Assembly: GCA_963836075.1 (NCBI GenBank) | Contig: CAWIIB010000001.1 | Coordinates: 1,696,001-1,760,000, forward strand | Reading direction: 5' to 3' | Length of the DNA: 64,000 nt | DNA from: an uncultured Acidobacteriota bacterium | GTDB lineage: Bacteria > Acidobacteriota > JAQAZP01 | Part shown: one piece after another, positions 22,304-54,674 of the stretch | Layout: each line of letters begins with the position of its first letter | Position numbering within the stretch: position 1 is the stretch's first letter | Translations under genes and position numbers: made by a program | The notes under the pieces: model-generated | Told to the model about the DNA's origin: nothing | What the model saw: the letters and a program-made list of their open reading frames with translations, nothing else | Databases searched by the model: none

Positions 22304-22353
22304 GATGCCACCTCTTTCAGTTCTGCGGTTACAGTCACCCGGGACGACATCGC

Positions 22354-22396
22354 CCCGGTTATCCATATCGCGACAAAGAGCGGGACATCCGGACAG
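22354..22396 (-). promoter_or_regulatory. conserved 43-bp upstream element, copy 1
   Basis: 39/43 identical to 25662-25704; ~50 bp upstream of the start codon. Confidence 0.7.
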
Positions 22397-22421
22397 GATT
22401 ATTGACATAATTCAAAAATAA

Positions 22422-25718: not shown

Positions 25719-28105
25719 TCAGGGGGATGAGAGAGGGGCCGACTCCTGCTCCGCCAGGGTCTGGTAGTGTGCCGCACGGTCGGTGTCGCCGGTGGTGCCA
25801 TAGAGTTGGGCAAGATACTCGTAGATTCTCCGGGTGCGCCAGTGATCGTTGCCGAGGATGGCCCGCACGCCTTCGAGACAGGTGAGCAGCTCCTCTTCGG
25901 CCTCAGCGTGGCGGCCCAGATGCATCAAGTGTACGGCCGCGTGTCGAGTGAAGCCACGGTTTCAACCAGTGACCTTCCTCGATGACATCGGGGGCCAACC
26001 CGATCGCCTCTTCAAGTTGGGGCAGTGCTTCTTCGTTGCGGCCCATCACACTTAATTGCAGACCGAGATTGTGCAGGCCGATGATCACGCTCTGGCTCTG
26101 GTCGCCGTGCACCCGCCGGCGGGTCTCCAGGGAGCGTTGGAACATTTCCAGGGCCTGGTCGTGCAGTTCCAGTTCCTGGTAGAGAAAGGCCAGATTGTTC
26201 AGGGCGATGGCGGTACGCGGGTGATCCTTACCAAACTCCTCTTGAAACCAGGCGTAGGCCTCTTCCAGAAGCGGCCTGGCCTCTTCGAGTTTCCCCTGCT
26301 GGCGGTAGACGTTGCCCAGCGACGCCATGGTGGTGATGGTCTCGTCATCCGGTGATTTCTTTACCGCCAGTGACCGTCTGAGACACTCTTCGAACAGCCG
26401 TTCCGCTTCGTCGATATCCCCCTTGTCCCAGTGCACCAGCGCCAGTTCGTGATAGGCCGTGATCCGCTCCGGGTGGTCCTCGACCAAGATTCTCCGCGGC
26501 CAGGTCAAACCCCTGGCGGACCCAACGCTCGGCTTCCTCCAGGTTTCCCAGGTCCAGATGCAGCGCGCCAATGTCCAGCAACAGTCCCACACGACTTTCC
26601 ACGGGGAAGTCGGGCAACTGGTTGCTGATTTCCATGGCCCGCAGCAGGTGCGGCTCGGCCTCGTCATACAGGCCGAGACCGTAATATGTGTAGCCCAGTC
26701 GATGGTGGGCCTGGGCCGCCACCTCCGGCTGGTCTTCCAGAGTCTTGTCCAGGGTTTGGGAAGCCCGTTCGAGAAGTTCCACCACCTTGACCTCGCGACC
26801 GTCAACCCAGGGGTCGGGGGCCTCCAGCATCTCGGAGAGGTAGGTGTTGAGCAGCTTGGCCTTCTCCGCTTCGGTCTCGGCGCGGGTGCGGGCCCTGGCG
26901 GCCGAGTTCCAGCCGGCCACAGAGATCACCAGGCCGGCCACCAGGGCGGTCAGGGCCAGGCCGGCCAGGGAGACCAGTCCCCGGTTGCGCCGGGCGAACC
27001 GCATGAACTGGTAGCCGAGGCTCGGCGGGCGGGCGCTGATCGGCTCGTGGTTCAGAAACCGCCGCAGGTCGGCGGCCAGTTCCGCGGCCGAGCCGTAGCG
27101 CCGGTCCTTCTCCTTCTGCAGGCACTTGCCGATGATCGTTTCCAGGTCGGCGGCAAAGGACTGGCCCGAGGCGCCGAGGGTGGAGGGATTCTCGTGCTCG
27201 ATGATCCGGGCCGCCTCGCTGATGCTCTTCCCGGAGATGGTCTGGGGCAGCCGCCCGGTGAGCAGCTCGTAGCCCAGCACGCCGAGGGTGTAGACATCGG
27301 AACGGATGTCCAGTTCCTCGTGCTGTCCCCGCACCTGCTCGGGGCTCATGTAGGCCAGGGTGCCGATGATCTGCCCGATGTCGGTCTGCATGGTGGTGGC
27401 CTGCAGGTCGGCGTCGGTGATCCGGGCCACGCCGAAGTCGAGCACCTTGGGCTGGCCGTCCGGGCGCACGAGGATGTTGGCCGGTTTGAGGTCGCGGTGG
27501 ATCACCCCGCGGCGGTGGGCGTGGTTCACCGCGTCACAGACCTTGATCAGCAGTTCCAGCCGTGCTTCGGTCCGCAGTTCGTGTTCCTCGGCGTAGCCGG
27601 GTCAGCGGCAGGCCGTCGACCAGTTCCATGGCAAAGAAGGGCTGGGTCCCGGTGGGGGTCTCCAGGGTTGCGGCCTCGAAGATCTGGGCGATGCCGGGGT
27701 GGTCCAGACGGCCCAGCACTTCGGCTTCCAGTTCGAAACGCCGGAGCAGTTGCGGGGAGACGGCGCCGCTGCGGATCAGCTTCAGCGCCACCTGGCGTCT
27801 GGGGTGCTCCTGCTCGGCCCGGTAGACCACGCCCATCCCGCCGGCGGCCAGGACTTCGATGATGCGGTAGTTGCCGAGGGATTTGCCGACCCACGGATCG
27901 TCGCGGACCATCGAGCCGATGAGCCGGCTGTTCCATGAATCCGTCCGCCGCGGCATCGGCATCGAGGAGCGAGGCCACCTCCGCGTGCAGTTCCCCATCG
28001 TCACCACAGGCATCCCTGAGAAAGGTCTCGCGCTGCTCAACGGGCAGACCGATGGGCCTCTTCCAACAGCTCCATCACCCGTTCCAACCGCTGGTCATCA
28101 GACAT
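25719..28105 (-). CDS. Ser/Thr protein kinase with TM and TPR repeats (about 5 frameshifts)
   Basis: Pieces in successive frames: [40 protein letters not shown], then TPRs (HP.TA.ALNNLA); start overlaps the ECF stop (ATGTCTGA). Confidence 0.85.
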
Positions 28106-33062: not shown

Positions 33063-33982
33063 GCGACACGAAAGACCGGCTGACCCGGCGTGATTTCCTG
33101 CAGGCCGTTTCCGGCGCGGCCGTGGTCGGCGCCGTGGGAGGAAGTCTGGGGGGCGTCAGGGATGCGGCGGCGTCCCCGCCCCCGCGCACGGCGGCCGCGG
33201 GCAAGTCCACCGTGGTGCTGGTGCGCGACACGGCAGTCCTGGATGAAAACCGCAAAGTCAGCGGCCCGGTGATTTCCCGGATGCTGGACCAGGCGGTGGC
33301 CGCGCTGTTCGATGAAGAGACACCGGAAAAGGCCTGGAGCCGCCTGTTCGGCCCGACGGACATCGTGGGTATCAAAACCAACGAGTGGGAATTCCTGCCC
33401 ACCCCGCCGGCTCTGGAGGAGGCGATCCGCCGCCGGGTGGCCGGCACCGGGGTGCCGGCGGAGAAAATCACCGTGGCCGACCGGGGGATTCACGAGAATC
33501 CGGGGTTCACCGGGGCCACGGCCCTGGTCAATGTCCGGCCCATGCGTACCCACCACTGGTCCGGGGTGGGGAGCCTGCTGAAAAACGTGATCACCTTCAC
33601 CCCTTCGCCCTGGGACTGGCACGACGACTCCTGTGCCGACCTGGCCGGCCTGTGGCAACTGCCAGGGATCAAGGGCAAGGTGCGGCTGAACATCCTGGTG
33701 ATGCTCACCCCGCTGTTCCACGGCAAGGGGGCCCACCACTACCAGGCGGAATACACCTGGCCCTACGGCGGCCTGGTGGTGGGCGTGGACCCGGTGGCGG
33801 TGGACGCCACCGGTCTGCGGATCCTCGAAGCCCAGCGGGACCTGCACTTCGGCAAAAACGTCCCCTTCACCGTACCGCCGCACCACATCCGGCTGGCGGA
33901 GGAAAAGCACCGGCTGGGCATTGCCGACCCGGACCGCATCAGGATCATCAGGATCGGCACCATGGATAACGCCCTGATCTGA
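33059..33982 (+). CDS. Tat-exported DUF362 domain protein
   Basis: TRRDFL twin-arginine signal; VGIKTN, P.R.HHW.G....KN, DPVAVDATG. Confidence 0.8.
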   Translation: MSDTKDRLTRRDFLQAVSGAAVVGAVGGSLGGVRDAAASPPPRTAAAGKSTVVLVRDTAVLDENRKVSGPVISRMLDQAVAALFDEETPEKAWSRLFGPTDIVGIKTNEWEFLPTPPALEEAIRRRVAGTGVPAEKITVADRGIHENPGFTGATALVNVRPMRTHHWSGVGSLLKNVITFTPSPWDWHDDSCADLAGLWQLPGIKGKVRLNILVMLTPLFHGKGAHHYQAEYTWPYGGLVVGVDPVAVDATGLRILEAQRDLHFGKNVPFTVPPHHIRLAEEKHRLGIADPDRIRIIRIGTMDNALI

Positions 33983-34007
33983 GCAAGTTATCCAGGAGAG
34001 AAAAACG

Positions 34008-36102
34008 ATGACTGAACGTATCACCCAAGCTGCCCTAATCCTGTTGCTGGTTGCCCTGGTATCCGTCCCGGCCATGGCCGGTTGGCCCGACGACCCGGCG
34101 GAGAACATGGTGATCTGCGACCGCAACGGCAGGCAGTCATCGACCAAGATCGCCGCCATCTCGGACGGCGGCTGCTACATCAGCTGGTATGACAAGGCCT
34201 CCGGAAACTACGACGTCTACCTCCAGCGTCTGAGCGGCAGCGGGGTTGCCCAGTGGCCCGCCAACGGCCTGCTGGTCAGCGCCCACCCCCAGGAGACCTG
34301 GGTCAACGACTACGACCTGGCCTGCGACCAGGACGATCATGCCATCGTGGTAATCAACGACATCCGCGACGGCTCGGACCGCGACATCTTCGCCTACCGC
34401 ATCAGCCCGGCCGGCGAGTTCGTCTGGGGCGCCGACGGCCTGACCCTCTCGGCCAATGACGGCTACGAACCCGATCCCCGGGTGACGGTGACCAGCGACG
34501 GGAACCTGGTTTTCGCCTGGCAGGAGGAGAACAACCTGCACCTGCGCAAGGTGACACCGGCCGGCGCCGACCTCTGGGTCCCGGCGACCGTCACGCTAAC
34601 CGCGATCTACGGGTACTCAGTTACCCGGCTGGCTCCGGCGCCAGATGACGGGGTGATCCTCCAGGCACTGCTGCACCATGGCCCGGACACCTACGATCCA
34701 AAGCACCTGACCATCTTCAAGTTTGGCCGCAACGGCAACCACATCTGGAATCCTGCCGGCGAAACGGTCTCCGATGCCGGCGGTTTCGGACCCGACATGC
34801 GGCCCGACCTGATTCCCGATTCCAAGGGCGGTGCGTACTGCCACTGGTACGACACCCGGACCAGTTCCCAGCACACCTTTGTCCAGCACGTCACCGCGTC
34901 CGGCACCATGGCCTGGACCGATGACGGTGTTCTTTGCTCAACAATCGGGAGTGAGCTTCAATTTGCCCCGTCCATCACCCGTCTACCCAACTCCGACGAC
35001 ATCATCGTCTTCTTCCCCTTTGCCGACGCCTACCAGTCTCGGAGCGGTGTGAGGGGCCAGCGGCTGAATCCGGCCGGCCAGCGACTCTGGTCCGACGACG
35101 GCGTGGTCCTGGACCCGCTGGAATTCCGCAACCGCTGGAACGTCCGGGCCCAGGCCCAGGAGGATGGGGCCATCGTCACCTATCTCGACGATGTGGCCGA
35201 GCTAAGCACCAAGGTGATGGCGATCAGGGTGGACATGGACGGCAACCAGGTCTGGCCAACATCGCCGATTGAGATGACCAGCATTGCCCGCACCAGGGGC
35301 ACGATGGCTGACTGTGCAAACTCCTCAGACCAGGTGATCTGCGCCTGGGAGGACCGGCGCAACGACAGCAGCGGTGACATCTACCTGCAGAACATCAATC
35401 CCGATGGGAGCCTCGGCCCCCTCTCCTCGCTGCCCGGCATACCGCGCCTGGTTGCCGGCCCCGGGCCGGGGTATGACAACCCGCCGATGGTGCGGATCTT
35501 TCCGCCGGCCCAGGGTGCCGAGCACCTTGAAGAATTCGACGCCTATGGCCCGGAGCACTATGGCGTAAATGTGTGCTGTGGCGATGTGAACGGCGACGGC
35601 CGAGCCGAGTTGCTCACCGGGGCCGGCCCCGGGGACATCTACGGTCCCCACGTGCGGGGTTTTGCCGTGGACGGCACGCCGATCCCCGGCCTGAGCTTCC
35701 TGGCCTACGGCACCAACAAGTACCGGGGTCAACGTGGTCGCCGGCGACATCGACGGGGACGGCTTCGACGAGATCGTCACCGGCGCCGGGCCCTCGGCGC
35801 TCTTCGGCCCCCACATCCGCGGCTGGAACGTTGACGGCGGGACTGTTGCCGAGGTCTATGGAATGAACTTCTTTGGCTGGGACCCGGAATACGTCAGTTA
35901 CGGCGCCGTTGTCAGTTCCGGCGCAGACCTGGACGGCGATGGCCTGGACGAGCTGCTGGTGGCCGCCGGACCCGATCCCCACATGGATACGAATGTGCTG
36001 GCGTATCGCTACAACGGAGCCGGTGTAACGCTCCAGTTCGATCTCACCGCTTTCGACGATGATATGACCTACGGCGCCAATGTCGCGGCCGGCCGATTCT
36101 AG
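34008..36102 (+). CDS. secreted beta-propeller protein with C-terminal FG-GAP module (frameshift ~35723)
   Basis: Signal peptide; W.D.R..DIY.Q repeats; tail of GD.[ND]GDG..E..TGAGP...GPH.RG repeats ending GANVAAGRF. Confidence 0.8.
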
Positions 36103-37880: not shown

Positions 37881-40593
37881 TCAGTCGGCAGTGCGCACGA
37901 TCCTGAGGCCGAAGGAGTTGTTGTTGGCCGTGGGCCGGTAGTTTCCCCGGTACGCGGAACGGCAGTCCCAGGCCCGGAAATCCCAGCCCCCGCCGCGCAG
38001 CACCCTGGTCTTCCCCGAATCGGGTCCCCCGGGGTCACGGTTGGGGGAATACTCGTAGTAGTTGCGGTCGTAATAGTCGGAGCACCACTCGCCCACGTTG
38101 CCGTGCATGTCGTACAGCCCCCAGGCGTTGGGCTTCAGCTGCCCAACCGGGTGGGTGGCGTCGCCCGAGTTGTAGCAATACCAGCCCCAGGGGGCCAGGT
38201 GGTCATCATTCCGGCAATCCATCGAATTGATCTCACCGCCGAAAAAGGACCGGCTGGTGCCCGAGCGGCAGGTGAACTCCCACTCCGCCTCGGTGGGCAG
38301 GCGGAAGCGCCCGGCGCCGGCGGTTGAATTCAGCTTGTCCACAAAGGCCCGGGCATCGTTCCAGGACACAGAGTCCACCGGGCGGTCGGCACCCTTGAAG
38401 TGCGACGGGTTGCCGCCCATCACCGCCTGCCACTGAGCCTGGGTCACCTCATAGATCCCCAGCCAGAACCCCTCGCTGATCACCACCGTGTGCTTGGGGC
38501 TCTCGTCGGTGTGCGTGCCCTTCCGCTTTTCCACGGTGCCCATCCTGAAGGTGCCGGGCGGAATCCAGACGAAGTCCATCTCCACCCCCGGGCCGACGCT
38601 GAAGCTGCGGGTGATGCCGTGGGACTGCCACAGACCCTTCCGGGCATGATCAAAGCGGGTGGAATAGCGCTCGAGACGGGCATCCCCGGGGGCGATTTCA
38701 CGGAAGCGGGCCAGCGCCTGTCCGGCATCCTCGAGGCTGGCCACCGTACCGGCGGTGATGCCCCGGTCGATCCGGGTCTCCAGACCCGCCAGCTCCGCCT
38801 CATTGTTCGTGGTATCCAGCCGGGCGGTTTCAGCAGCCGCCTTTTCCCCGGCCTGGACAAAGAGCGCCTCCGCGTCCCCGTAGGCCTGCCGTTCCAGGTC
38901 GGGGCGGCCGGCGGCCCGGTGCCCCTCCCCTGCCCGCAGCTTCTCCTCGGCGGCGGTCCAGAGCTCCGGCGCGTGCTCGGCAGCACCGGCGTCCTGAGCT
39001 GCCTGGCGGGAGGCCTGGACCGCGGTCAACGCTGCCGCCACCTCCGCCTCGCTGACCACCGGTTCCACGGGTTTGCGGGCCGGGGTGCTGGTGCGGGCCG
39101 GCTTTGTAGCGGCGTCCTTTTCCGCGGGCTTCGTCGATCCCACCTCGGTGGGCCGCACGGCTTTTTCCTTCTCCGGCGGCTCTTCAGCCACCGCCGCGAC
39201 GGCCGGTTTCCCAGCCGCAGCCTCCGGCTCGGCTGCAGGTTTGCTCACCGATTCGGCGGACCGGCCGGTCTTGCCCGCCGGCGGCTTTCCGCTCCCCGAA
39301 ACGTCCTGCTCCGGATTCTTTTCTTCGGTCGTGGCGGGGGAATCTCCCGGGTCGTCTTCAACGACCTCTGATACATCTCCGATGGCTGATCCGCCCGCGG
39401 CCTGCTCCCCCTCCCCGGGCGCACCGAGCTGGGCCTGCTGTCCCTCCCCCACCGTTCGGGGCCCGGTGATCCCTGGTCCACCAGACCACCACCAGCAGTA
39501 TGGCCAGCAGAATGGCCATGGCACCGATCCAGGCCAGGATGATCCGGCGCATGCCGAACCGCTCTGTCAGGCCGGGACGCGGAGGCTCCGGACGGGCCGG
39601 GGGCTCCGGCAGGGGCGGCGAGACAACTTCGGCGGCGGCGGGGGCATCCGGCGGGGTCACCGCCAGAGCGGTCTGGTCCACCGGCGCAACCGGCTCCACG
39701 GCACCGACGGCCATGGTGGGCGGCGGCTCATCCGCGGCCGGCGTCTCATCCTCCTCCAACGGTTCGTCGGGCTGCTCCCGCAGACGCTGCAGGGCCTCCA
39801 GCAGTTCCCCGGCGGACTGGTAACGGTCATCGGGGTTCCGGGCCATCAGCCGGCTGACCAGCCGGTCCACGGCCGGCGGCACCTCGGGATTGATGTCGCG
39901 CACCGATTTCTCCGGATCGCTGATCCGCTGGTGCAGGATGGCCACCGGCATATCCGCATCGTAGGGCGGGCAGCCGGCCAGCATCTGGAAAAGCACGCTG
40001 CCCAGCGAGTAGAAATCGGCGCGATGATCGACGTCATCGTCCTCCAGCTGCTCCGGTGCGATGTAGATCGGGCTGCCGAACATGGTGCCCGGCCGGGTCA
40101 GCCGGGTTTCCTCGAGGGTCAGGGCGATACCGAAATCGGTGAGCACCACCTTCTCGCCCCGGGGGTCGACGATGATGTTGGCCGGCTTCACATCGCGGTG
40201 GATCACCCCCGACTGGTGGGCCGTGCCCAGGGCGTCGGCCAGCTGGCCGGCAAAGAACAGGGCCTTGTCCAGCGGGAGCCGGCCTTCCTCGGCAATGTAC
40301 TCCTCGAGGGTGTCGCCCACCAGGAGTTTCATCACGAAGTAGTAAGCGCCCTCGCACTGGCCGATGTCGTAGATGGTGACGATGCCGGGGTGATCCAGCG
40401 CGGCCACGGACCTCGCCTCGCGCAGGAAGCGCTCGACAAACTCCTTGTTCTGCGCCAGGTTGGCGGGCAGGACCTTGATCGCCACGTACCGTTTGAGCGC
40501 CGGCTGCACCGCGCGGTAGACCACGCCCATGCCCCCGGACCCGATGACGCCCTGGATTTCGTACGGTCCGATTTTTTTCCGTTCAGGAGCCAT
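37881..40593 (-). CDS. Ser/Thr kinase - TM - linker - FGE-sulfatase (SUMF1) domain protein (frameshift ~39400-39480)
   Basis: GSGGMGVVY, HRDVKPANI, DFGIA; C-terminal IPPGTFRMG, RLPTEAEWE, PNAWGLYDMHGNVGEW, RVLRGGGW. Confidence 0.88.
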
Positions 40594-40731
40594 TGAATGA
40601 GCAGAGACGGCACTCTGAAGGCCGGCCGCGGCACCTCCGCGGCGGGTCGCGTTCCAGTGGTATGAACCAACCCTGACTGGTTAAAGAATAGTGTTGTCCT
40701 CGAACAGGGTCAAGGCGTCGCGCTGAAAATG

Positions 40732-40763
40732 AAAAGCCCCGAAGGGATGATCCCCCCCGGGGC
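40732..40763 (-). terminator. probable rho-independent terminator
   Basis: GCCCCG..CGGGGC stem followed by TTTT on the minus strand, after 40786. Confidence 0.6.
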
Positions 40764-40785
40764 ATTGCCCGTCAGGTCAAGCGGT

Positions 40786-42457
40786 TCAGGGCGCGATGCC
40801 CACCACGGTGCAGCTGCCGCCGTCGGTATCGCCGGACGGCATGTAGGGCGGCTGGTTGTACGGCGCCGGGGTCACATCCTCCACCGTGAAGGTGAAGGTG
40901 TTGGCCCCCACCAGCGCGGTGAAGGCGGGCAGGTTCTGCTGCCAGCTGGTGCTGTAGGTCTCTCCCGGGCCGAGGTTGGTATACCCGGCACGCCAGTTGT
41001 TGTAGACCGAGCCCCCGGCCAGTTCCACGCCGATTTTACCGGCCATGCGGCGGGTGCCCTCGGCGGCCAGGTTCTCCATCTCCACGGCTCATCGTCACGG
41101 TGAACGGCAGCACGCCGAACTGGGGCAGGCAGCTCAGCGACGCGGCAACCGTCTGGTTGGAGGTCACCGTGATCACGTTGGTGAAGATGTCGGGGTTGCC
41201 GTTCTGGGTGGAGGGGTAGCAGGGATAGACGTAGTCACCGCCCACGCCCAGGCCCAGGTAATCGCCGAGGAACTGGCTCGAGCCGCCGGCGTAGTAGCTG
41301 TCAAAGGAGGCCGGGGTGAGGCGGTACTCGGTGAAGCTGGCGCCGCCGTCAACACTGAGGGCGTAGTAGGCGTCGAACATGCCGTGCTGCACGCCGTCGT
41401 TCTGCACCGTGTGGCGGGTGTCGAGGTAGAGCACGTGCAGCCGGCTCTCCTGGTCCACCTCGATCCAGGGCCACAGCTGGTCGCCGGCCGGGCTGGAGTC
41501 GCCGTTGATCACCTGCGGAGTGGTCCATGTCGATCCCTGGTCGGTGGATTTGGTCAGGTAGGCGTCGACGTTGCGGTTGCCGCCGTCCCAGCCGGTGGTG
41601 TCGAAGTAGGTGCAGTAGAGCGTGCCGTCATTGGGGTCCACCGCCAGGCCGTTCAGCGAGGGGACGCGGAAGGTGCCGGGGAACCGGGCCGAGTCGTAGA
41701 TGTCCCAGGGGTCCATCCGGGTGGCGATGGTGATCGCCGGGTCGAAGGAGACACCGCCGTTGAGGCTGCGCCGGAGCATCACCCCGTCGTAGTAGTCCCA
41801 GTAGGTCACGTAGAGCTCGCCGCCCGGGCCCACCTTGGGCAGGAAGCCGACACCGCTGCCCAGGGAGACCGGCGACGTCCAGCTGTCACCCATGTCGGTG
41901 GAATGCTGACAGCCGTAGTTGAAGGTGTGGTAGACCCGGGTGCTGTCCGGAATGCCGGGCACGATGCCCGCGGCCAGCCAGCCCTTGTCGATGCCGCCGT
42001 CGACGATGGTCATCACCGACGGCTGGAAGGTGGCGGCCCCGGGGTTCTTGCGGGCGACAAAGACGCCGCCGTTGCCGGTCCAGGACATGCCGCCGGCCCA
42101 GAGGGTGCCGGTGCGGTTGTCATAGCAGGTCATCGGGTCGCCCTCGGTGCTCCCCTCGTGGCCGGCCGGCGGGCGGAGCAGCATGTCGGTCCAGGTCTGC
42201 CCGTAGTCGTTGCTCACCGAGATCCCGGTGCGGTACTGCCCCATGCGGTAGTCGTTCCAGCCGCCCACCACCTCGTTGGGGTGCAGGTGCACCGAGGCCA
42301 TGGTGGTCTCGTTGGCCGTGGCCGTGCCGCCATCGTCGATGCGGACCTGCGGCCCCACGGTCACTTCCTGGGCCGCGGCCCCGAGGGAGAACAGGAGCAG
42401 GCCGCAGCAGGCGGCCAGCCCGAAGATTCCAAAACGTATCCCGTACTTCTGTATCAT
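40786..42457 (-). CDS. secreted Asp-box (BNR/sialidase-like) beta-propeller with shared C-terminal domain (frameshift ~41087)
   Basis: Signal peptide; SNDYGQTW, STDMGDSW, SLNGGVSF, STDQGSTW, SVDGGASF; FLGDY; ends DVTPAPYNQPPY..CTVVGIAP. Confidence 0.85.
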
Positions 42458-42514
42458 GATGTACTCCTCAACCAGCTTGCCGGCGAAGCCCGAGGCCCGC
42501 CGCGGGCGGACAGA

Positions 42515-43249
42515 TCACTTCGCCGGTTCCGGCATCTTCTCCCGCAGCAGGGGCAGGAACTGGGCGGGCACCTTGTAGCCCAGGGCCTCGGCCCGGGCCA
42601 CGCCGTCCCAGGCGCTCTCGTAGTCCTCGAGGTAATAGTCGAGGACCGCCAGGCGGCCGTAGGCCTCCCCGTGGTCGGGGTCGAGGTCCAGCACCTGCAG
42701 CCAGGCCTGCTTCGACGCCTGGTAGTCGCCGGACATCTGCAGGGCCCAGGCCAGCTGCTTCCGCGCCTCGAAATGGCCGGGAGCGAATTCCAGCGCGGTG
42801 TTGAAGGAGGCGATGGCCTCGTCCCCCAACCCCTTGCGCAGCAGGGCCTGTCCCAGGCCGGTGAGGTGTTCCGGGCTCTCCGGGGCCATGATCACCGCCC
42901 TGGTCAGGGCACCGATGGCAGCAACGCGGTCATTCTTTTCAAAGAGGTAGAAAAGGCCCCGCTGGTAGGCATCACCGGCAGTGGCGAAGACCTCCGCATC
43001 GGGGAGCGGTTGGGCCGCCGCCGGGTCCACCACCACCCGGCCCGTGTCATAGGACAGGCCGCGCAGGGCATCGGCCATCCGCTTTTCCTTGTAGCTCTGA
43101 CCGGCGGACGGGGGAGACAGTTCGCCGGCCTCCACCGGGGCCGTCTCGTCGATCACGGCCGCCTGCTCCGACTGCTGTTCGCTGCTGCAGCCGCTGAGTC
43201 CAACGGCGCAGACCAGCAGCGCCAGGGCAAGAAATCTGAGGGTGATCAT
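42515..43249 (-). CDS. TPR lipoprotein
   Basis: Lipobox LSGC; several TPR repeats. Confidence 0.8.
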   Translation of the reverse strand: MITLRFLALALLVCAVGLSGCSSEQQSEQAAVIDETAPVEAGELSPPSAGQSYKEKRMADALRGLSYDTGRVVVDPAAAQPLPDAEVFATAGDAYQRGLFYLFEKNDRVAAIGALTRAVIMAPESPEHLTGLGQALLRKGLGDEAIASFNTALEFAPGHFEARKQLAWALQMSGDYQASKQAWLQVLDLDPDHGEAYGRLAVLDYYLEDYESAWDGVARAEALGYKVPAQFLPLLREKMPEPAK

Positions 43250-43428
43250 TGCTGTCCTCCATTGCTGTCATCGGAACCGGGCCGGGGATTGCGAAGCGTG
43301 CGGCTTCCGGAAGTAACCCGATAGATCAAGTTCTGTGAGACATTGTATACCATGCCGCTCCATCGGCAGGCATGGGTTCCACCCCCGCCGGCCGGTCAGA
43401 AGACCTTCCGACGGGGGTGCGGGAGTGC

Positions 43429-46400
43429 TCAGGGAGCCACACCGGTCACGGTGCAGCCGGCGCTGTCGGTGTCGCCGGCCGCCGGATAGGGCGGCTGGTT
43501 GTATGGCGCCGCGGTCACGTCCGCGGCCAGCAGGGTGAAATCGTTGGCCCCCACCAGCGTGCCCAGCGCCGGGATGTTCTGGAGCCAGTTGGTGGTGAAG
43601 GTGTCCCCGCCGGCCACGTTGGTGTAGCCGGAACGCCAGTTGGCGAAATACTGGCCCGCGGCCACGGTGACGTGAAGCTTTGCGGCCAAGGTGCGGGTGA
43701 AGCCGGTGTAGAGGTTGGTCAGGCCCACGGTCATGTTGGTGGTGAAGGGCAGCGTCCCCGACGAGGGCACGCAGCTGAGCGAGGCGGACACCGTGTCCAC
43801 CGCGCCGCTGTCGCAGTCCAGTTCAAAGACGCTGAAGGCGTCGATCCCGGCTTCCACCACCGACCCGTCGTTGAGGTCGGAAGCCTCGAAGCGGACCTTC
43901 ACCGTGCTGGTGGGGGTGACGAAATCGGCCACGGTGAAGGTGTGGACGTTCCAGCCGCTGGGGCTCTGCGGGCCCACCGTTTCCACCAGGACCCAGCTGG
44001 CGCCGTCGTTGTTGGAAACATGGATGTTGAACAGGTCGTTGTTCGGGTCCCCGCCGACGTTGTTGGTGTACCACAGGGCGAAGCTTACCTGCGCCGCCGG
44101 CACAGCGGACAGGTCGAGGGTCGGCGAATGGAGCCAGGTGATCCCGCCGTCCACGTCGGTGTCGTCGTCGGCGTTCTGGGTCAGGTAGCAGTTGCCCGAC
44201 CCGTCGTAATCGATGGCCGGGTCGCCCCGGTCACCACCGCCCACCGGGATGCCCCGCTCCCAGGCGCCGGCGGTGAGACCGCTGCCGTCGATCACGGTCC
44301 AGCCCAGGTCGTCCTCGAAGTCGTCGCCGAAGGTTTCGGACAGCTGACCCACCTCGGAGGTGTAGTTGCCGCTGACCGGGTTGCGCACCAGGCCGGCGGT
44401 GACGCCCTCGGCGCTGAAGAAGTATTCAGGGCTTTCGTTGCAGTCGGCCGCCGGCAGGGTGGCCGTGTAGAGGTCGCCACTCAGGTGGGTCAGCGGGTAT
44501 TCGTCAAAGAACATGCCGCCCGACCGGTAGTGCAGCCTGGCCGACCCGGTGACGTAGCTGTCGGCGTTCTCCACGATCTGGACGTTGATCGTGGTGCTCA
44601 CCCCCGGATCGACATACTCCGGCGTGCCGTCGGGGAGGGTGATCTTGAGCAGCGCGGTCATGGCCAGATCGGGGTTGCCCCACAGGGCGCCCCACTCGAA
44701 GGCCTCGTACTTGATGTAGTTCCAGAGGCCGTTGAGATACATCTCGCGCAGTCCGGCCTGCAGCGCCTGCCCCTGGGTGTAGTCCCCGGAGGTGACGCGG
44801 GTGGTGAAGAAGTAGTCCAGCGACTGGCTCGATCCGTCGTAGGCGCTGTTCCAGCCCGGGCAGCCCATGGCCACCTTGGTGGCGCCCACAAATCCCACCG
44901 CCCCCTGCCGGATCATCGACTGGCCGATGTTCAGCGAGTCGGTGTCCGAATTGCTGCAGGCGTCGGCGAAGATGATCGCCGGGTAGTCGTCATCGAGGGA
45001 GGAGCAGTCCGAGGACTGGATGAAGGCCGGGGCGCCCAGGCCGGCGATGTGGGACGAGGTGGGCGACCCGTGGCCGGCCCAGTTGACAAAGGCGAAGCGC
45101 CCGGTGGGCCAGACCGCCATCACGTTGCTGTTCAGCAGCTCGTAGTCACAGGCGAAGCTGGAGTGGTAGTCCGCGTTCTGCTCGTACATCCGGGTCATGG
45201 TCCAGTCGGCCATCCAGGGCTGGTCCACCTTGGCTTCCATCAGCTCCGCGTTGTCGGTGTCGGCCCAGAAGTAGCCGCCGAGGAGCAGGATGTTCTGCTT
45301 GTAGGAGAGGTCGGTGTTCTGCTCGAAGGCCACCGACTTGTTGCAGATGTTCGTCACGTCGGTGGCCCCGCTCCAGGGGATGCGGCCCACGTTGATCTCG
45401 GCGTAGAAGTCGATGGGGTCGCTGTTCTCGCCCCACTGGTGGTCGCCGTCGGCGTCCCACGACTGGTTGTCGGGCAGCGAGAGCTCGGCGTAGTAGAAGT
45501 CGGTCTCCGGCTGGCCGTAGCCCACGTCCTGGGCGCAGCGCCGCATGGGCACGTCGTCGTAGTGGCCCACCAGCAGCAGGTCCTCGATGCCCCACTCCGC
45601 GGTGGGGTACTTGTCGATGAGGAAGTTGCGGATCCGCTCCGCCTGGTCGTAGCCGGTGTAGTTGGCGTCGATCCAGCTGGTGGTCACCACCTGCACGGTG
45701 CGGCCCTTGCTCACCTCGTGATTCACCAGCGGGGTCACCGCCGAGGTCAGGCTGTCCAGGGTGACGATGACGAAGTCGTAGAGCCCGCGGCCCTGGCGCT
45801 GTCCGGCCGGGTACCACTGCTGGGCCTGCGTGTAGTTGAGCACGATCTCCCGGGCAGTCTTTTCGGTGCCGGGCAGCCAGTCGCTCATCGGGGCCACCGA
45901 GCCCTGGTGCGGCATGGTGTAGTGGACGTTCACCGTGACCCGCGGGTGGTGGGTCAGGATCCCGCTGGCCGCGGCGTAGGTGAAGGGGGATACCCGCACG
46001 TCCACCAGGTTGTACTTGCGGTAACCGGCACGGCCCACCATTTCAGCCACCACGGCGGGCCAGGGCGCGTCGCTGCCGTAGGCCGCATGATGGTTCTGCT
46101 GGTAGCGCTCCAGGTCCCTGCGGTAGAGCTCGGGGTTCTCGTCGCCGATCACCCGCGGCAGCGGCGCCGGCGCCACGGCGTGGGAACCGGAAAGCACGGT
46201 GCTGCCCTGGCAGGTCCAGGTCACCCCGGTGGCTGTTGCGCCGGGGGGGATGGCCACGGCAAAGATCCGTGCCGGCATGTTCGGTTTTCCGGGAACCAGC
46301 AACCGCCCGAACCCCTCCACGGCAAGCTCTCCATCCTGATCAATGGTGTAGACGGAAGCGTCCACGGTCACCGACACCGTCCCGGTATCGGCGGCCCGGG

Positions 46401-46497
46401 CATCGAAGCCCGGAAGGAGAAAGAGGGCGGCAACGATCAGGCCGCAAAGGAGAACGGTTGATCGACGGCCGGCGGAAGGAGCGCAACACATGGGCAT
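43429..46497 (-). CDS. C25 (gingipain-like) cysteine peptidase with propeptide and shared C-terminal domain
   Basis: PGKPNMP propeptide, IRNFL..LLLVG, D..Y..L, VGRIP, WAGHG (His), ADACS (Cys), LWGNP; ends DVTAAPYNQPPY..CTVTGVAP. Confidence 0.9.
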   Translation of the reverse strand: MPMCCAPSAGRRSTVLLCGLIVAALFLLPGFDARAADTGTVSVTVDASVYTIDQDGELAVEGFGRLLVPGKPNMPARIFAVAIPPGATATGVTWTCQGSTVLSGSHAVAPAPLPRVIGDENPELYRRDLERYQQNHHAAYGSDAPWPAVVAEMVGRAGYRKYNLVDVRVSPFTYAAASGILTHHPRVTVNVHYTMPHQGSVAPMSDWLPGTEKTAREIVLNYTQAQQWYPAGQRQGRGLYDFVIVTLDSLTSAVTPLVNHEVSKGRTVQVVTTSWIDANYTGYDQAERIRNFLIDKYPTAEWGIEDLLLVGHYDDVPMRRCAQDVGYGQPETDFYYAELSLPDNQSWDADGDHQWGENSDPIDFYAEINVGRIPWSGATDVTNICNKSVAFEQNTDLSYKQNILLLGGYFWADTDNAELMEAKVDQPWMADWTMTRMYEQNADYHSSFACDYELLNSNVMAVWPTGRFAFVNWAGHGSPTSSHIAGLGAPAFIQSSDCSSLDDDYPAIIFADACSNSDTDSLNIGQSMIRQGAVGFVGATKVAMGCPGWNSAYDGSSQSLDYFFTTRVTSGDYTQGQALQAGLREMYLNGLWNYIKYEAFEWGALWGNPDLAMTALLKITLPDGTPEYVDPGVSTTINVQIVENADSYVTGSARLHYRSGGMFFDEYPLTHLSGDLYTATLPAADCNESPEYFFSAEGVTAGLVRNPVSGNYTSEVGQLSETFGDDFEDDLGWTVIDGSGLTAGAWERGIPVGGGDRGDPAIDYDGSGNCYLTQNADDDTDVDGGITWLHSPTLDLSAVPAAQVSFALWYTNNVGGDPNNDLFNIHVSNNDGASWVLVETVGPQSPSGWNVHTFTVADFVTPTSTVKVRFEASDLNDGSVVEAGIDAFSVFELDCDSGAVDTVSASLSCVPSSGTLPFTTNMTVGLTNLYTGFTRTLAAKLHVTVAAGQYFANWRSGYTNVAGGDTFTTNWLQNIPALGTLVGANDFTLLAADVTAAPYNQPPYPAAGDTDSAGCTVTGVAP

Positions 46498-46653
46498 ACC
46501 TCCATATAGGGATTAAAGTGCATTCGGCAACCCGGAATCCGCGGTGGCGAGTCCGCGACGTCGGAAGGCTGAACTGCGGCGGGACCCCGGTGGCCGGCGG
46601 TTGGACGGAGAGCCTGGCCGCCAATCGGGGGAACCCACTCATATGTAAGGAAT

Positions 46654-46682
46654 AATGTAATGCCGGGGGGCGGGAATGTCAA
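46654..46682 (-). promoter_or_regulatory. sigma70-type promoter
   Basis: Minus strand TTGACA-N17-TACATT, ~150 nt upstream of the C25 peptidase start. Confidence 0.65.
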
Positions 46683-46776
46683 TGCGGATGACCGCTTATC
46701 CTACTGATTCCATATACTTTCCGCAGATCGAATGGATCAGCAGCAAATGGCAGGCATCCGGGTCAGGTCATGCGTC

Positions 46777-47454
46777 TCAGTCCTTGACCGGTTTGCCGGT
46801 CTTGTACATGGTCTGGAAGCCGTCCTCGGACACTTCGGCGGAGAACTTGCGCACCCACTTGACCAGCTTGTTCCAGGTGTTGGTCAGGGCGGTGCCGCTG
46901 GTCACCCGGGTGTGCAGTCCGGCCAGCAGTTCCCCGCTCTCCTTGTGAACGAACTTCAGCTCGATCCGGGCCAGGCCCTTGCCGGCCATGGCCGGCGCCA
47001 GGAACCGTGCCGCCTTGTTTCCCCGGGTGCAGTCGACGATCCGTCCGCTGACCAGCACGTCGCCATCCTCCAGCGATACGGCGGCCCGCCCCGCGAGATC
47101 GGCGCCCAGCTGCAGTTCCAGCATGGCGGGCATCTCGGCGCTGATCTGGCGGGCCAGTTCCAGGTCCTCCTCTTCGCGTCCGGCGGCAGCGGTGCCGATG
47201 AACTGCGGTGCGGGCCAGGCCTCGAAGTGGAAGGTGTGGTCGTCGACGGAAAACCCCGGTTTGACCCAGAGGTAGTCCACTGACGATGACTGGCGGAACT
47301 CCTTGCCGCCGCCGAACCACTCCGGATCGAGCGTCCCATCGTCCAGCACCGCCTGGCCGGCCGCAGCCGGCCCGCTGCACAGCAGGGCCAGAACCGTCAT
47401 CCAGAGGATTGCCGCCATCGGAAAGAGCTGTCCCGGACACCCGGTCATCACCAT
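46777..47454 (-). CDS. secreted hypothetical protein (DUF4410-like)
   Basis: Signal peptide; GRIV...GNKAARF...AG.....E.KF....SGELLA. Confidence 0.55.
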   Translation of the reverse strand: MVMTGCPGQLFPMAAILWMTVLALLCSGPAAAGQAVLDDGTLDPEWFGGGKEFRQSSSVDYLWVKPGFSVDDHTFHFEAWPAPQFIGTAAAGREEEDLELARQISAEMPAMLELQLGADLAGRAAVSLEDGDVLVSGRIVDCTRGNKAARFLAPAMAGKGLARIELKFVHKESGELLAGLHTRVTSGTALTNTWNKLVKWVRKFSAEVSEDGFQTMYKTGKPVKD

Positions 47455-47462
47455 CCTCCCTT

Positions 47463-49780
47463 TTAGAAACTCCCCGCCGCCACCGTGGCGCCGTGACTGA
47501 TCCCGCTGTCAAATGCGTCGAGCGCGAACCACTGGCTCACCGCGGAACCGTCGTAGCGGAAGACCGCCACCGGCGAGCCGAGGGCCGGGTCGGGCCCGCC
47601 GCCGACCACGATCTCGTCCCGGCCGTTGCCGTCGAGGTCCGCCGAGGCGAACACCCGGGCGCCGAAGGCCGCCGTGCCTTCGGGCAGGGCAAAGAAGTTC
47701 AGGCCGGCCATGGTCTCGAGGGTGGCGCCGTCGTAGTTCCAGCCGCGGACATGGGCGCCGAACAGGCCGGAAGGACCGGGGGAGGTGATGATCTCGTCCA
47801 GACCGTCGCCGTCCACGTCGCCGCAGGCCACGTTCACCCCGAACTTGCTGGTGCCGTAAGCCATGAAGCTGACCGCGGACAGTGGGGCGGCCGCGCCCCC
47901 GTCCACGTTCCAGCCCCGCACGTGGGGCCCGAACACCGCACCGGGACCGGCGCCGGTGACGATTTCGTCATACCCGTCGCCATCGATGTCGCCGGCGGTA
48001 ACGTTGATTCCGAACTTGAGGGTGCCGTAACCGAAATAGCTCACCCCGGTCATGGCCGACACCGTCTGCGAAGCGCCGTAGTGGAAGGCCCGAACGTGGG
48101 GCCCGAACACGGCTCCCGGGCCGGCGCCGGTGATGATCTCGTCACGGCCGTCACGGTCCAGGTCACCGGCGGCCACGTTGACCCCGAACTTCAGTGTGCC
48201 GTAGGCCAGGAAACTGAGCCCGGCCACCGGGGTCCCGTCGGTTTGGAAACCGCGAACGTGGGGGCCGTACACCGCCCCGGGGCCGGGTCCGGTGAGCAGC
48301 TCGTCCACGCCGTCACCGTCCACGTCGCCGCATGAGACGTTGACGCCGTAGCCGCCGGCGCCGTAGGCAGCGAACTCGGCCTCGTGGGTGGCGCCCGCTT
48401 CCGCCGGGAAAACGCGGACCAGCGGCTGGTTGTCCGGGTCCGGGCCGGGCCCGGCCACCAGCCGTGCTTCCCCCCGCCGCCGGCGATGGTGATCACGTTG
48501 GTGAAGATGTCCGGGTTGCCGTTCTGGGTCGAGACGTAACAGGGGTAGACCCGGTTGCCGCCCACGGCCAGCCCCATGTAGTCGCCGAGGAACTGGCTCG
48601 ACCCGCCGGCGTCGTAGCTGTCAAAGGGCTCGGAGGTCAGCCGGTATTCGGTCCAGCTGTCGCCCCCGTCCTCGCTGATGGCGTAGTAGGCGTCGAACAT
48701 GCCGTGCAGGGCGTCGTCGTCCTGCACGGTGTGGCGGCTGTCCAGATAACAGGTGTGCAGCCGCCCCTGCTGGTCCACCTCCAGCCAGCACCAGAACTGG
48801 TCGCCGGCCGGGTCGGCGTCACCGTTGATCACGTGGGGCGTGGTCCAGTTGGATCCCTGGTCGGTTGATCTGGTCAGGTAGATGTCGACGTTGCGGTTGC
48901 CGCCGGACCAGCCGGTGGTGTCGGAGAAGAGGCAGTAGAGCGTGCCGTTGTTGGGGTCCACCGCGAGGTAGCTGAGGGCCGGCACGCGAAACCGCCCGGG
49001 GAACCGGTCGCCTCCCTGGGTGTCCCAGTAGTCCATGCGGGTCGCGATGCGGATTGGCGCTTCAAAGGAGAGGCCGCCATTGAAGCTGCGGCGCAGCATC
49101 ACCCCATCGTAAAAGTTCCACGAGGCTACATAGAGTTCGCCGTTGGGACCCACTCGCGGGAGATAACCGATTTCAGAGCCGAGAGAGACCGGGTTGTTCC
49201 AGCTGTCCCCCATGTCGGTGGAGCGCTGGCAGCCGTAGTTGTATGTGCAGTAGACGGAGGTACTGTCGGCGGTGTCGGGCCCCCGGCCGGCGGCCATCCA
49301 GCCCTTGTCGATGCCGCTGCTGTTGTAGATCATCACCGTCTCTTCGAACGAAGTCTGCCCGGCGTCCATGCGGGCCGCGAACACTCCGCCGTTGCTGGTC
49401 CAGGACATGCCGCCGAACCAGAGCGTGCCGGTGCGGTTGTCGTAACAGGCCATGGGGTCGCCGCCGTAGCCGTAGGAGGAACCGGGAGGAGGCGGAAAGA
49501 TGTCGTCGGCCCAGGTGGCCCCGCCGTCGGTGGTCAGGGAGATCCCGTTGTTGTTCGACGAGCGGTAGTCGTTCCAGCCGGCCACGGCAATCATCGGACT
49601 GGCGTGCACCGAGGCGATGGTGGTCTCGTTGGACCAGTTTGAACCACCGCCCGGGTCGATGCGGACCTGGGGGCCCATGGTGACCTCCACCGCCCCGGCG
49701 GGGAAGGCTGCCGCCAGCACGATCAACAACAGCAGGGCGAAGCCCCGCAACGGTATTCTGTTCAGGCGATCCATCTCCAT
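47463..49780 (-). CDS. secreted Asp-box beta-propeller (paralog of 40786-42457) with C-terminal FG-GAP module (frameshift in G-run ~48470)
   Basis: Same propeller up to TQNGNPDIFTNVIT, then RLVAGPGP..VRVFP and five GD.DGDG repeats, ending GATVAAGSF; GAGGAGG RBS. Confidence 0.85.
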
Positions 49781-49899
49781 CCTCCTCGATCCTGGCAGCA
49801 GTGACGGAGGGAGCACGGCACCAGGCGGTGTTCAGGCAAGGCACTGATTTCGGCTGGAACAATTCTAGCACGAGAGCGGGCGGCGGGACGAAATGCAAA

Positions 49900-49953
49900 A
49901 ACCTGGGGTCAGGCCATGGGGAGTTGCAAATGAATGGTACCTGACCCCAGGTT
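49900..49953. repeat. REP-like inverted repeat
   Basis: AACCTGGGGTCAGG ... CCTGACCCCAGGTT, 14-bp perfect arms. Confidence 0.7.
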
Positions 49954-54200: not shown

Positions 54201-54674
54201 GTGCCGGGGGAGGTCTATTTCTGGCGGGTGGACGAGGTGACCTTCGGCGGCGGCAGCCTGGGGCCGGTGCGCGGGGACGTCTGGACCTTCAGCTCCACGG
54301 CGGTGGAGACGGTGAGCGTGCAGCTGGCCTGCGTGCCGTCATCGGGCACCCTGCCCTTCAGCAGCAGTTTCACCGCCACCCTGACCAACATCGCCGCCGG
54401 GGAGAACCGCCGGGTGGCCGCCCGGCTGGACGTCACCACCGCCGGCGGTCAGAGTTTCCCGGGCTGGCGGGCCGGCTGGAGCAACCTGGCGGACGGGGAG
54501 AGTTTTGTCGCCTCCTGGACCCAGCAGTTCCCGGCCCTGGGGTCACTGGTGGGCGTCAACAGCTTCCTGCTGCGGGCCGTGGACGTGACACCGCCGCCGT
54601 ACAACCAGCCGCCCTGGCTGCCGGCGAGTGACAGCGATACCGGCCAGTGCACGGTGACAGGGACCGCGCCCTGA
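51261..54674 (+). CDS. C25 peptidase - BACON-like - LamG - shared C-terminal domain
   Basis: IRAWL..VLLIG, TDFFYSDL, VGRIP, MTHG (His), GSCGN (Cys), NLYGDP; HWKLDE..WVHLA..LYVNG..LDDVRVYN; YFWRVDEV; ends DVTPPPYNQPPW..CTVTGTAP. Confidence 0.9.
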   Translation: MKTRLFFLMAGLLCAATAYGGSLQIHTAHASGQVTAPSLPPLSVSAAASGGTVFSGDDLQWLGQSGEPRIPWQVVTLLLPPDADSSTLTGRLSGASYGEVAGTWRVDPLPPPATRNRSGETVYDWPAGKRLADGHDLDIYGSNSLWPAEGVRLLGCGRLHGWLLCEAAVPLVRWNPATGRLVRLESAHLRLEFERTPVGSAQPVHHLRNPRGAERVARLAANFESAATAYGNGRSSERASGYTIVTTNAVVNSSAALAGFMAHKASLGFTVRLVTEDDFGGGQGDGAAENIRAWLQANYLADETLHVLLIGNPHPGEGEVPMKRCYDSVDGMYEMPTDFFYSDLSGDWDLNQDGNSGQWEDMGDGGIDRFWEVLVGRIPYYGQITDTDHILQKLVDYEQDTDTQWRRRALLPMVPLDDATQSYQLGEQMKAGYLEAAAIPSHRLYHDDYGLVPLPETIPSSYENVINRWNDAPCGLVVWMTHGWNEGGAEVATSDSILGLDDAFPGATWHGSCGNAEPEHPRNIAYALLRHGGIATNGATRSSWYYVGETNFTASTSIGGLGYQYAAKLVAGQSCGQAWADVRQEMVPGIWSNFAMHNLYGDPSLVVMPPPPAFTVRPTDLFAVSGVRNEVWHGGQRTFTLKNNSGSPFSWSATGSTPWLALDPAGGTLAGGEEVEVLAQISSSSGELPVGTQQAQIIFSEAAGGVTIQRDVQVEVKPRVMAIHWKLDEQNGFIAYDGSGFDNRGFLEGGIRFQNDAVPGRFGGALRFHESGYMINMEHLGLQDIPPPWTMAMWVKKTENITGTSSLFSSPTAALRLEHWNNDDVGFTIFGGGGDHSFGYSAPVGQWVHLALVGSESSTSLYVNGLPWATVDTPIAAPMRSLCTSLLRLAAELDDVRVYNHTLSAEGIKALERGGQAMNPAPADGAAGIADGSLLSWVPGVSAVSHNVYFGTDAGAVAAATVDSPEYAGNQSGTDWQPALVPGEVYFWRVDEVTFGGGSLGPVRGDVWTFSSTAVETVSVQLACVPSSGTLPFSSSFTATLTNIAAGENRRVAARLDVTTAGGQSFPGWRAGWSNLADGESFVASWTQQFPALGSLVGVNSFLLRAVDVTPPPYNQPPWLPASDSDTGQCTVTGTAP

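Follow-up and report, generated by a model that had tools for sequence, protein, structure and literature searches.

Paralogous propeller proteins with alternative C-terminal tails, and traces of tail exchange among exported proteins of an uncultured Acidobacteriota genus

We analysed a window of 64,000 nucleotides (nt) from an uncultured Acidobacteriota bacterium (contig CAWIIB010000001.1 of assembly GCA_963836075.1, positions 1,696,001 to 1,760,000), in which two genes, here called A and B, encode paralogous Asp-box propeller proteins with different C-terminal ends. The propeller of A is followed by a domain of ~120 amino acids (aa) that contains the motif NQPPY (the NQPP domain), and that of B by an FG-GAP module (the FG tail). 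Analysis of both tails across the genome led us to the reading, to which we give a probability of roughly 0.55, that A and B are intact old paralogues differing only in their tails, that the tails have been swapped repeatedly, and that each tail would direct or hold its cargo at a distinct extracytoplasmic place. The two genes and their parts, in positions of the window and as open reading frames (ORFs) of the assembly, are as follows.

40786-42457, minus strand: gene A, with signal peptide, Asp-box propeller and NQPP C-terminal domain (assembly ORFs 41036-42457 and 40786-41085)
41170-42457, minus strand: propeller head of A, BNR_2-like, with four visible Asp-boxes; homology with B stops at ~41170
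40786-41160, minus strand: NQPP domain of A, ~120 aa, predicted eight-stranded beta-sandwich (hmmsearch and family model)
41085-41087, minus strand: extra base (C in the coding-strand run AGCC) shifting the frame inside the NQPP domain of A, a probable assembly error
47463-49774, minus strand: gene B, with signal peptide, Asp-box propeller, Gly-rich linker and FG-GAP tail (assembly ORFs 48191-49816 and 47463-48458)
48490-49774, minus strand: propeller head of B (Pfam, blastn and windowed DNA identity)
48459-48489, minus strand: Gly-rich linker of B, containing a frameshift; one base short relative to its kin, beside a run of six G
47463-48458, minus strand: FG-GAP tail of B, 331 aa, predicted six-bladed beta-propeller with calcium loops (Pfam FG-GAP and FG-GAP_3, AF2)

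Comparison of the two heads revealed 67.8% identity across 404 aa, and the motifs that a first-pass annotation of this DNA had quoted as common to A and B all occur in both translations, so that its description of the pair as Asp-box paralogues holds. The ORFs 41036-42457(-) and 48191-49816(-), of 473 and 541 aa, both begin with a signal-peptide-like N-terminus; the start of gene B was set at 49774 from orthologues beginning MDRLNR. Orthologues of gene A (P0001-P0004) are unbroken proteins of 554-555 aa with 85-92% identity, while those of gene B (P0007, P0008, P0011, and P0014) have 768-771 aa, and A and B are the only copies of this propeller in the genome. The BNR_2 model scores 29.8 and 27.2 bits on the heads of A and B, both below the cut-off of 31.4, with Asp-box motifs visible in the sequences, and orthologues of the heads carry precomputed PF13088/PF02012 assignments. 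The sole PDB sequence match of the propeller is an exo-alpha-sialidase (E 0.0015), and the name "exo-alpha-sialidase" borne by its homologues is automatic.

The likeness of A and B stops directly past the codons for TNVIT, at ~41170 in A and ~48490 in B; the blastn match ends at the same place, and the identity in 60-nt windows drops from ~0.8 to 0.4-0.6, which maps the breakpoint that the annotation had placed there. Past this junction, as it had also described, A continues into the NQPP domain and B into the FG-GAP module, which matches PF01839 with 69.6 bits (cut-off 22.1) and PF13517 with 63.2 bits (cut-off 26.9). Its statement that the DNA is near-identical up to the junction does not stand: the head DNA is 75.9% identical overall (1220 aligned columns) and 53-90% identical per 60-nt window, and only the final ~40 nt, encoding TQNGNPDIFTNVIT, are nearly the same. 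Because the DNA is not near-identical and the species of the genus have kept both architectures, the pair is an old duplication and not a recent exchange. Both types share one contig in L082, a related species, and the A/B split is therefore older than the species of the genus. No remnant of a displaced tail was found at genes A and B themselves.

A tblastn search with two copies of the NQPP domain yielded 219 loci, 194 of them near full length, and 188 of these 194 end at most 4 aa from a stop codon. A hidden Markov model (HMM) built from 169 copies matched 212 ORFs, with 191 full-length domains and 23 partial matches, and 185 of the 191 full domains have at most 6 aa between them and the end of the ORF; hmmsearch with this model matched the 100-aa ORF of gene A at hmm positions 32-130. 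Six full domains of the source genome (G000) stand away from the ORF end, and a few of the metagenome proteins P0121-P0128 carry two tandem NQPP domains or one that is not terminal. The median pairwise identity of the domain is 45%. Its consensus holds a highly conserved proline-rich loop, PAPYNQPPYPPSGDTD, and a pair of cysteines that co-occur (both in 116 sequences, neither in 25, one in 28) and probably form a disulfide. The AlphaFold model of the family (predicted local distance difference test [pLDDT] 95.8) is a sandwich of eight strands, which points to a predicted immunoglobulin (Ig)/CARDB-like beta-sandwich. Its fold matches include RbmA (Z 11.8, root mean square deviation 2.6, 105 residues aligned), CARDB (3idu, Z 9.7), and transglutaminase barrels; the NQPP model resembles CARDB and the fibronectin type III (FnIII) domains of RbmA, whereas the proline-rich loop and the cysteine pair are its own. 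A search of the ESM Atlas gave low scores of 0.78-0.81, leaning to CARDB/DUF11 (CARDB 0.80), and serves as a lead only. The NQPP part of six proteins matched nothing in Pfam (E<=0.01) or NCBIfam (E<=0.1), and a profile of 42 NQPP sequences had 0 matches among PDB sequences at E<=10.

The 331-aa tail of B matched 151 ORFs in a phmmer search, most of them with E<1e-100. Complete terminal FG tails number 118; their median length is 331 aa, and almost all fall in the range of 323-343 aa. The other 33 matches are largely fragments in neighbouring frames. The median pairwise identity is 56%, and the tail matches generic FG-GAP repeat models only. The AF2 model has 24 strands (pLDDT 94, predicted template modelling score 0.93) arranged as six four-stranded blades and is closed by its own N- and C-terminal strands. 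FG-GAP and integrin-alpha propellers are typically seven-bladed. The consensus keeps GDxDGDGxDE in five repeats, loops of the D-x-D-x-D-G type for which calcium binding is predicted, and in a profile alignment the FG tail pairs with the calcium blades of integrin alpha-V (E 2e-8). The fold is akin to those of integrins, of fungal N-acetylglucosamine (GlcNAc) lectins such as the Psathyrella lectin, and of Streptomyces UmbA4 (TM ~0.5). A terminal Phe was considered as a signal and rejected as a universal feature, F ending only 46 of 114 FG tails. The tail thus resembles the FG-GAP/VCBS/integrin-alpha propellers, a superfamily described in the excerpted text of PMC8023676, in exceeding the cut-offs of both Pfam models and in sharing the lectin fold, and differs from them in its six predicted blades, in TM scores of no more than ~0.5 to solved structures, and in being a terminal cassette of fixed length on more than 118 proteins.

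The two tails occur as alternatives to each other. An NQPP domain is present in none of the 151 FG-tail ORFs, which answers in the affirmative the question, raised by the first-pass annotation, whether the tails exclude each other genome-wide; of seven places at which NQPP and FG-tail sequences lie close together, six hold separate adjacent genes and the seventh holds a remnant. When 3797 plausible genes (>=200 aa) were clustered by their C-termini, the two largest clusters, of 142 and 113 members, were the two tails, and the next had 46. This third cluster (46 genes, for example G000 C1:1447856-1450252(-)) has a charged, helical-looking end. We then clustered the heads of 293 tailed proteins (112 FG, 181 NQPP; heads <80 aa dropped) at >=60% mutual coverage and >=30% identity. 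The 36 multi-member head families comprise 16 with both tails, 7 with the FG tail only, and 13 with NQPP only, so cargo families other than that of A and B do occur with both tails, as the annotation had asked. Pfam assigned the 20 head representatives to beta-helix, VCBS/FG-GAP, S8, C25, PAD_porph, BNR/sortilin, SBBP, and DUF362 families, with 4 left without a match. Altogether the cargo amounts to more than 300 exported proteins, including C25 and S8 proteases, arginine-deiminase-like enzymes, beta-helix proteins, and propellers, with esterases and lipases among their kin. A crude test called a signal peptide in 115 of the 171 NQPP heads and in 71 of the 107 FG heads, compared with 547 of the 3436 ORFs that served as background (16%).

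The most direct evidence for exchange is provided by five genes in which the stop codon is followed by a leftover piece of the other tail. In 3 of the 118 FG-tail genes this piece is the 3' end of an NQPP domain, in another frame, and in 2 of 188 NQPP genes it is the 3' end of an FG tail (a third match is doubtful). Because remnants of either tail lie behind the stop of the other, the tails were replaced in both directions, with the end of the old tail left untranslated. Comparison of the closest cross-tail pairs (55-95% head identity) revealed that homology reaches to ~12 aa from the tail start. In one cross-tail pair, 96.2% DNA identity over 1368 nt ends exactly at the junction, which shows a recombination tract bounded by the junction; the nearest other tail to the FG tail of this pair is only 79.6% identical. 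The largest head family consists of 55 beta-helix proteins (28 FG, 27 NQPP), for which a quick maximum-likelihood tree needs 13 tail changes (shuffled mean 18.6), at least 4 of them forced by branches with a Shimodaira-Hasegawa-like approximate likelihood-ratio test (SH-aLRT) support >=95. The proposal of the annotation that the tails are interchangeable and were exchanged by recombination is thus borne out genome-wide, by the shared head families and by remnants in both directions, and is not supported for a recent exchange between A and B, whose DNA is 76% identical and whose architectures are conserved. Neighbouring or tandem paralogues with heads 71-75% identical and with different tails were also seen (G000 C1:2067445-2071844(-) and C8:6888-17470(+)).

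Both genes are interrupted in the assembly at the places the annotation had given, ~41087 and ~48470. The shift in A, near 41086, lies ~20 residues into the NQPP domain and off the domain border, and in B one base is missing within the Gly-rich linker (~48459-48480). Logan contigs of four runs (X1, X5, X6, and X7) from four studies were aligned to 40700-49900. At the A site, the contigs of X1, X6, and X7 have one base fewer, throughout the depth there; in the B linker, X1 has 4 additional bases and X7 lacks 2, each of which restores the frame. The DNA of two other species likewise has one base fewer at A (L081 and L082) and one more at B (L082), and the A-type and B-type genes of L082 are each one ORF. 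Since contigs and orthologues of relatives read in frame, and since rpoB, kinases, and NQPP loci are also split in this assembly, each of the two frameshifts is most probably an error in the assembly's consensus. In rpoB (G000:C9:2605577-2609810) the last 160 residues are in another frame, and ~20 of ~211 NQPP loci are partial or split. Elsewhere in the window, a Ser/Thr kinase is read in one frame and its FGE-sulfatase domain in another, with an overlap (39358-39524), a second kinase is without its N-terminal third in frame (26345-28094), and an FG-tail gene (33978-36099) is in three pieces. The assembly has many single-base frame breaks, and "split genes" of this genome need care.

It is quite improbable that the two shifts are genuine or programmed, with the strain making tail-less propellers, with or without separate tail peptides. 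Both are present in the assembly, and their closeness to the head-tail junction is a noteworthy coincidence; however, they are absent from the related-strain contigs of four studies wherever these cover and display the site, from the genomes of two other species, and from every orthologous protein, the B site adjoins a G homopolymer, and the same assembly splits the essential rpoB and the NQPP loci mentioned above. Still far less credible is an origin of the two architectures in chimeric misassembly across the repeated tails. The tails are highly repeated, repeats may mislead assemblers, and the contig depth is 290-1545 over 47761-48067 and 15-142 over the NQPP-coding bins against ~5-30 elsewhere, but the same two architectures occur in independent assemblies from several sources, one X1 contig runs through the B junction from 48270 to 49900, and the A junction is bridged by contigs of all four runs. 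Chimeric misassembly and real frameshifts were the outcomes that the first-pass annotation had set against its own proposal; what was found instead is single-ORF architectures in independent assemblies and relatives without the shifts. Summed over the four metagenomes, contig depth is 50-1545 over FG-tail DNA (47761-48374) and 5.6-142 over NQPP DNA (40700-41006, 43463-43769), against ~2-30 elsewhere; many metagenome contigs join tail copies, and in natural communities as well the tails are present in very many copies.

The best named matches of the host RpoB are Thermoanaerobaculia, Acidobacteriota, Terriglobales, and Vicinamibacterales, at 64-67% identity. The genus is represented by three species genomes in the collection (the source genome G000, G001, and G002), and the next relatives share the phylum only. 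The runs that contain related DNA, four of which supplied the Logan contigs, bear the labels of metagenomes from salt-marsh, marine and freshwater sediment and from soil, and the host is a deep-branching uncultured Acidobacteriota genus of salt-marsh and sediment samples. A single-sequence search found NQPP in 3 of 21 genomes, and the 42-sequence profile found it in 3 of 301 genomes of the phylum, plus one weak match with a stop codon; among 1.84 billion representative proteins only 513 matched at E<=0.001. The FG tail in its specific form occurs in 3 of 121 phylum genomes, all of this genus, and two more genomes hold partial matches of 37-38% identity. Among the genomes searched, both tails are found only in this Acidobacteriota genus. 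In a large protein collection, 1596 clusters matched the FG tail at E<=1e-30 among 8000 scored candidates; esterases, lipases, M28 and C1 peptidases, and PNGase are among their heads. The nearest homologues of the A/B propeller beyond the genus (53-67% identity) are named as metagenome-assembled genomes (MAGs) of Planctomycetota/Phycisphaerae, while RpoB is that of Acidobacteriota, which suggests a possible transfer of the propeller gene between sediment lineages. The C-termini of those homologues are a dockerin, another sandwich, or nothing.

Shared C-terminal domains sort or anchor secreted enzymes in bacteria such as Bacteroidota, and the discovery of such a domain has led to secretion systems before. 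By analogy, each tail of the present genus would direct or hold its cargo at its own extracytoplasmic destination: the NQPP sandwich may serve as a tag for sorting or attachment, much as the C-terminal domains (CTDs) do in the secretion system of type IX (T9SS), and the FG propeller as a lectin-like anchor that holds to a glycan of a surface or substrate. A change of tail would then re-address an enzyme without altering its activity. The repeated replacement of one tail by the other took place by recombination at the boundary of head and tail. A bolder version, which we put forward only tentatively, takes the tails as signals of an unrecognised Acidobacteriota outer-membrane sorting system unrelated to T9SS, in which two tail classes would lead to two destinations, 6-7% of the proteome would depend on the system, and enzymes would be re-addressed in cassette fashion.

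In T9SS, according to the accessible part of PMC9143113, type A cargo is linked to anionic lipopolysaccharide and type B cargo associates with PorP-like proteins, and shuttle proteins route the two signal types to different destinations (PMC12618676, in excerpt); the portions available of PMC10202324 and PMC12398890 describe it as a system of Bacteroidota and the Fibrobacterota-Chlorobiota-Bacteroidota (FCB) group. The genome analysed here resembles this arrangement in that proteins of varied function, exported by Sec, have one or the other of two C-terminal domains at their end, and the cargo overlaps strikingly, with gingipain-like C25 peptidases, a Porphyromonas-type arginine deiminase, and subtilases. 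NQPP is also, like the T9SS type A CTD, a C-terminal sandwich, predicted to be Ig-like, on diverse Sec-exported proteins. The genome differs in that NQPP has no sequence match to the T9SS tail model, the host belongs to Acidobacteriota, and the second tail, a propeller of 331 aa, greatly exceeds a T9SS CTD in size. Dockerins offer another comparison, being small C-terminal modules common to many secreted enzymes of cellulosomes and planctomycetes, which they hold on a partner; propeller homologues in Planctomycetota MAGs end in one (PF00404 in P0021, P0025, P0037, and P0105). Neither tail here, in contrast, matches PF00404, and no cohesin-like partner is known in this genome. A complex prediction of the FG tail with the NQPP loop, modelled on cohesin-dockerin binding, scored 0.00 in a run without controls and is evidence neither way. 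In the literature on C-terminal domains of secreted Acidobacteriota and Planctomycetes proteins and on T9SS CTDs, mostly in the form of abstracts, no description of either tail was found; newly described here are the FG-GAP tail, the exclusion of one tail by the other, and the remnants of replaced tails.

Several results weigh against the reading of A and B as intact paralogues with swapped, addressing tails. With regard to intactness, the Logan contigs come from related strains rather than from raw reads of the source sample; the sole X5 record listed at the A site has 483 letters on 484 positions and its record at the B site 330 letters on 329 positions, lengths that imply one base fewer at A and one more at B but with the place of the gap or indel not displayed in either, and the X6 contigs stop short of covering the B site. 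With regard to exchange, the beta-helix head tree is mostly weak inside, with 23 of 52 inner branches drawn open, two of the three NQPP remnants appear to be duplicates of a single event, and the 96% block may be a recent gene conversion between old paralogues and not a recent tail swap. With regard to export and destination, the signal-peptide test is a home-made heuristic whose background includes spurious ORFs, and the best fold matches of NQPP are generic sandwiches (Ig, FnIII, and CARDB), none of them a close solved sorting domain. The FG tail has the appearance of a propeller that binds a ligand, and hydrolases are numerous among the heads; a substrate-binding role fits as well as an addressing one. 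Finally, searches of the genome for SprA, PorV, and T9SS tails, whose controls were weak or silent, found no secretion or attachment machinery or receptor for the tails. TIGR04189 and NF033710 (SprA and PorV) had 0 matches in the 94.7% complete source genome, with a SprA control of 0 in 14 genomes and a PorV control weak in 1, and TIGR04183 (Por_Secre_tail) had 0 matches genome-wide with a control that matched nowhere; no T9SS CTD chain is among the 50 matches listed in either fold search with the NQPP model, a result compatible with a likeness of the two.

The main rival to addressing by the tails is a substrate-binding role, in which both would act like carbohydrate-binding modules (CBMs), holding enzymes on two polymers or particles of the sediment, and a swap would alter what the enzyme sticks to rather than its placement by the cell. 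We consider it possible though doubtful. The match of the FG tail to integrin-alpha calcium blades and to the fold of the GlcNAc and UmbA lectin propellers, the likeness of the NQPP fold to CARDB, a CBM-type sandwich, and other accessory sandwiches of glycosidases, and the large share of hydrolases among the heads all speak for such a role. However, binding modules usually vary in position and number, whereas these are single and strictly terminal (185 of 191 for NQPP) and, for the FG tail, of 323-343 aa; they also occur on beta-helix and propeller heads without an enzyme signature, and two modules for ~300 proteins with very different likely substrates are more typical of sorting or anchoring tags. 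The other alternative is ordinary domain shuffling, under which the tails are just the commonest blocks of a fast-evolving surface repertoire and their terminal position has no role. FG-GAP, Ig-like, and beta-helix domains do shuffle in many bacterial surface proteins, and no partner was found; we nevertheless judge it unlikely, given the strict terminal position, the fixed length, the 0 of 151 ORFs with both tails, and tails that are conserved (median identity FG 56%, NQPP 45%) on very diverse heads and, in NQPP, keep a conserved exposed loop. Together, terminal position, fixed length, exclusivity, conservation, and the exposed loop argue for selection on a common interaction.

The neighbours of A and B and the further tailed genes of the window are listed below.

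42515-43249, minus strand: TPR protein gene directly upstream of gene A; a homologue is fused to the propeller N-terminus in other bacteria
43429-46497, minus strand: peptidase C25 protein with an NQPP end at 43429-43806; no counterpart between the A and B orthologues in L082
46777-47454, minus strand: DUF4410 protein gene directly downstream of gene B; in the same place in L082
51261-54674, plus strand: peptidase C25, BACON_2 and Laminin_G_3 protein with an NQPP end at 54297-54671
20837-22411, minus strand: FG-GAP_3 (VCBS-type) propeller protein with an NQPP end at 20840-21214
22532-25282, minus strand: subtilase S8 protein with an NQPP end at 22535-22897
33978-36099, plus strand: further FG-tail gene, broken in the assembly, with tail residues 1-92 in ORF 33978-35831 and 204-331 in ORF 35695-36099

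The signal peptides of the A, B, and C25 proteins were judged by eye. In L082 the order is B, DUF4410, TPR, and A, with 1.6 kb between B and A (L082:8302-9869), while in the present genome the 3.1-kb C25 peptidase gene with its NQPP tail stands between DUF4410 and TPR, a difference due to insertion here or loss there. In many MAG proteins of Planctomycetota/Phycisphaerae, 710-720 aa long (P0017, P0020, and others), a homologue of the TPR protein forms the N-terminal part of one chain with the same propeller, and this split-versus-fused pair suggests that the TPR protein and the propeller may work together.

In one uncultured Acidobacteriota lineage of salt marsh and marine sediment, more than 300 exported proteins thus carry one of two uncatalogued tails, and swaps of the tails have left traces. 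This makes several questions testable, namely whether a sorting or anchoring route exists outside the FCB group, what the ligands of each tail are, and whether tail replacement is a general means of re-targeting degradative enzymes. Models of the two tails would mark hundreds of "hypothetical" proteins of sediment metagenomes as exported cargo.

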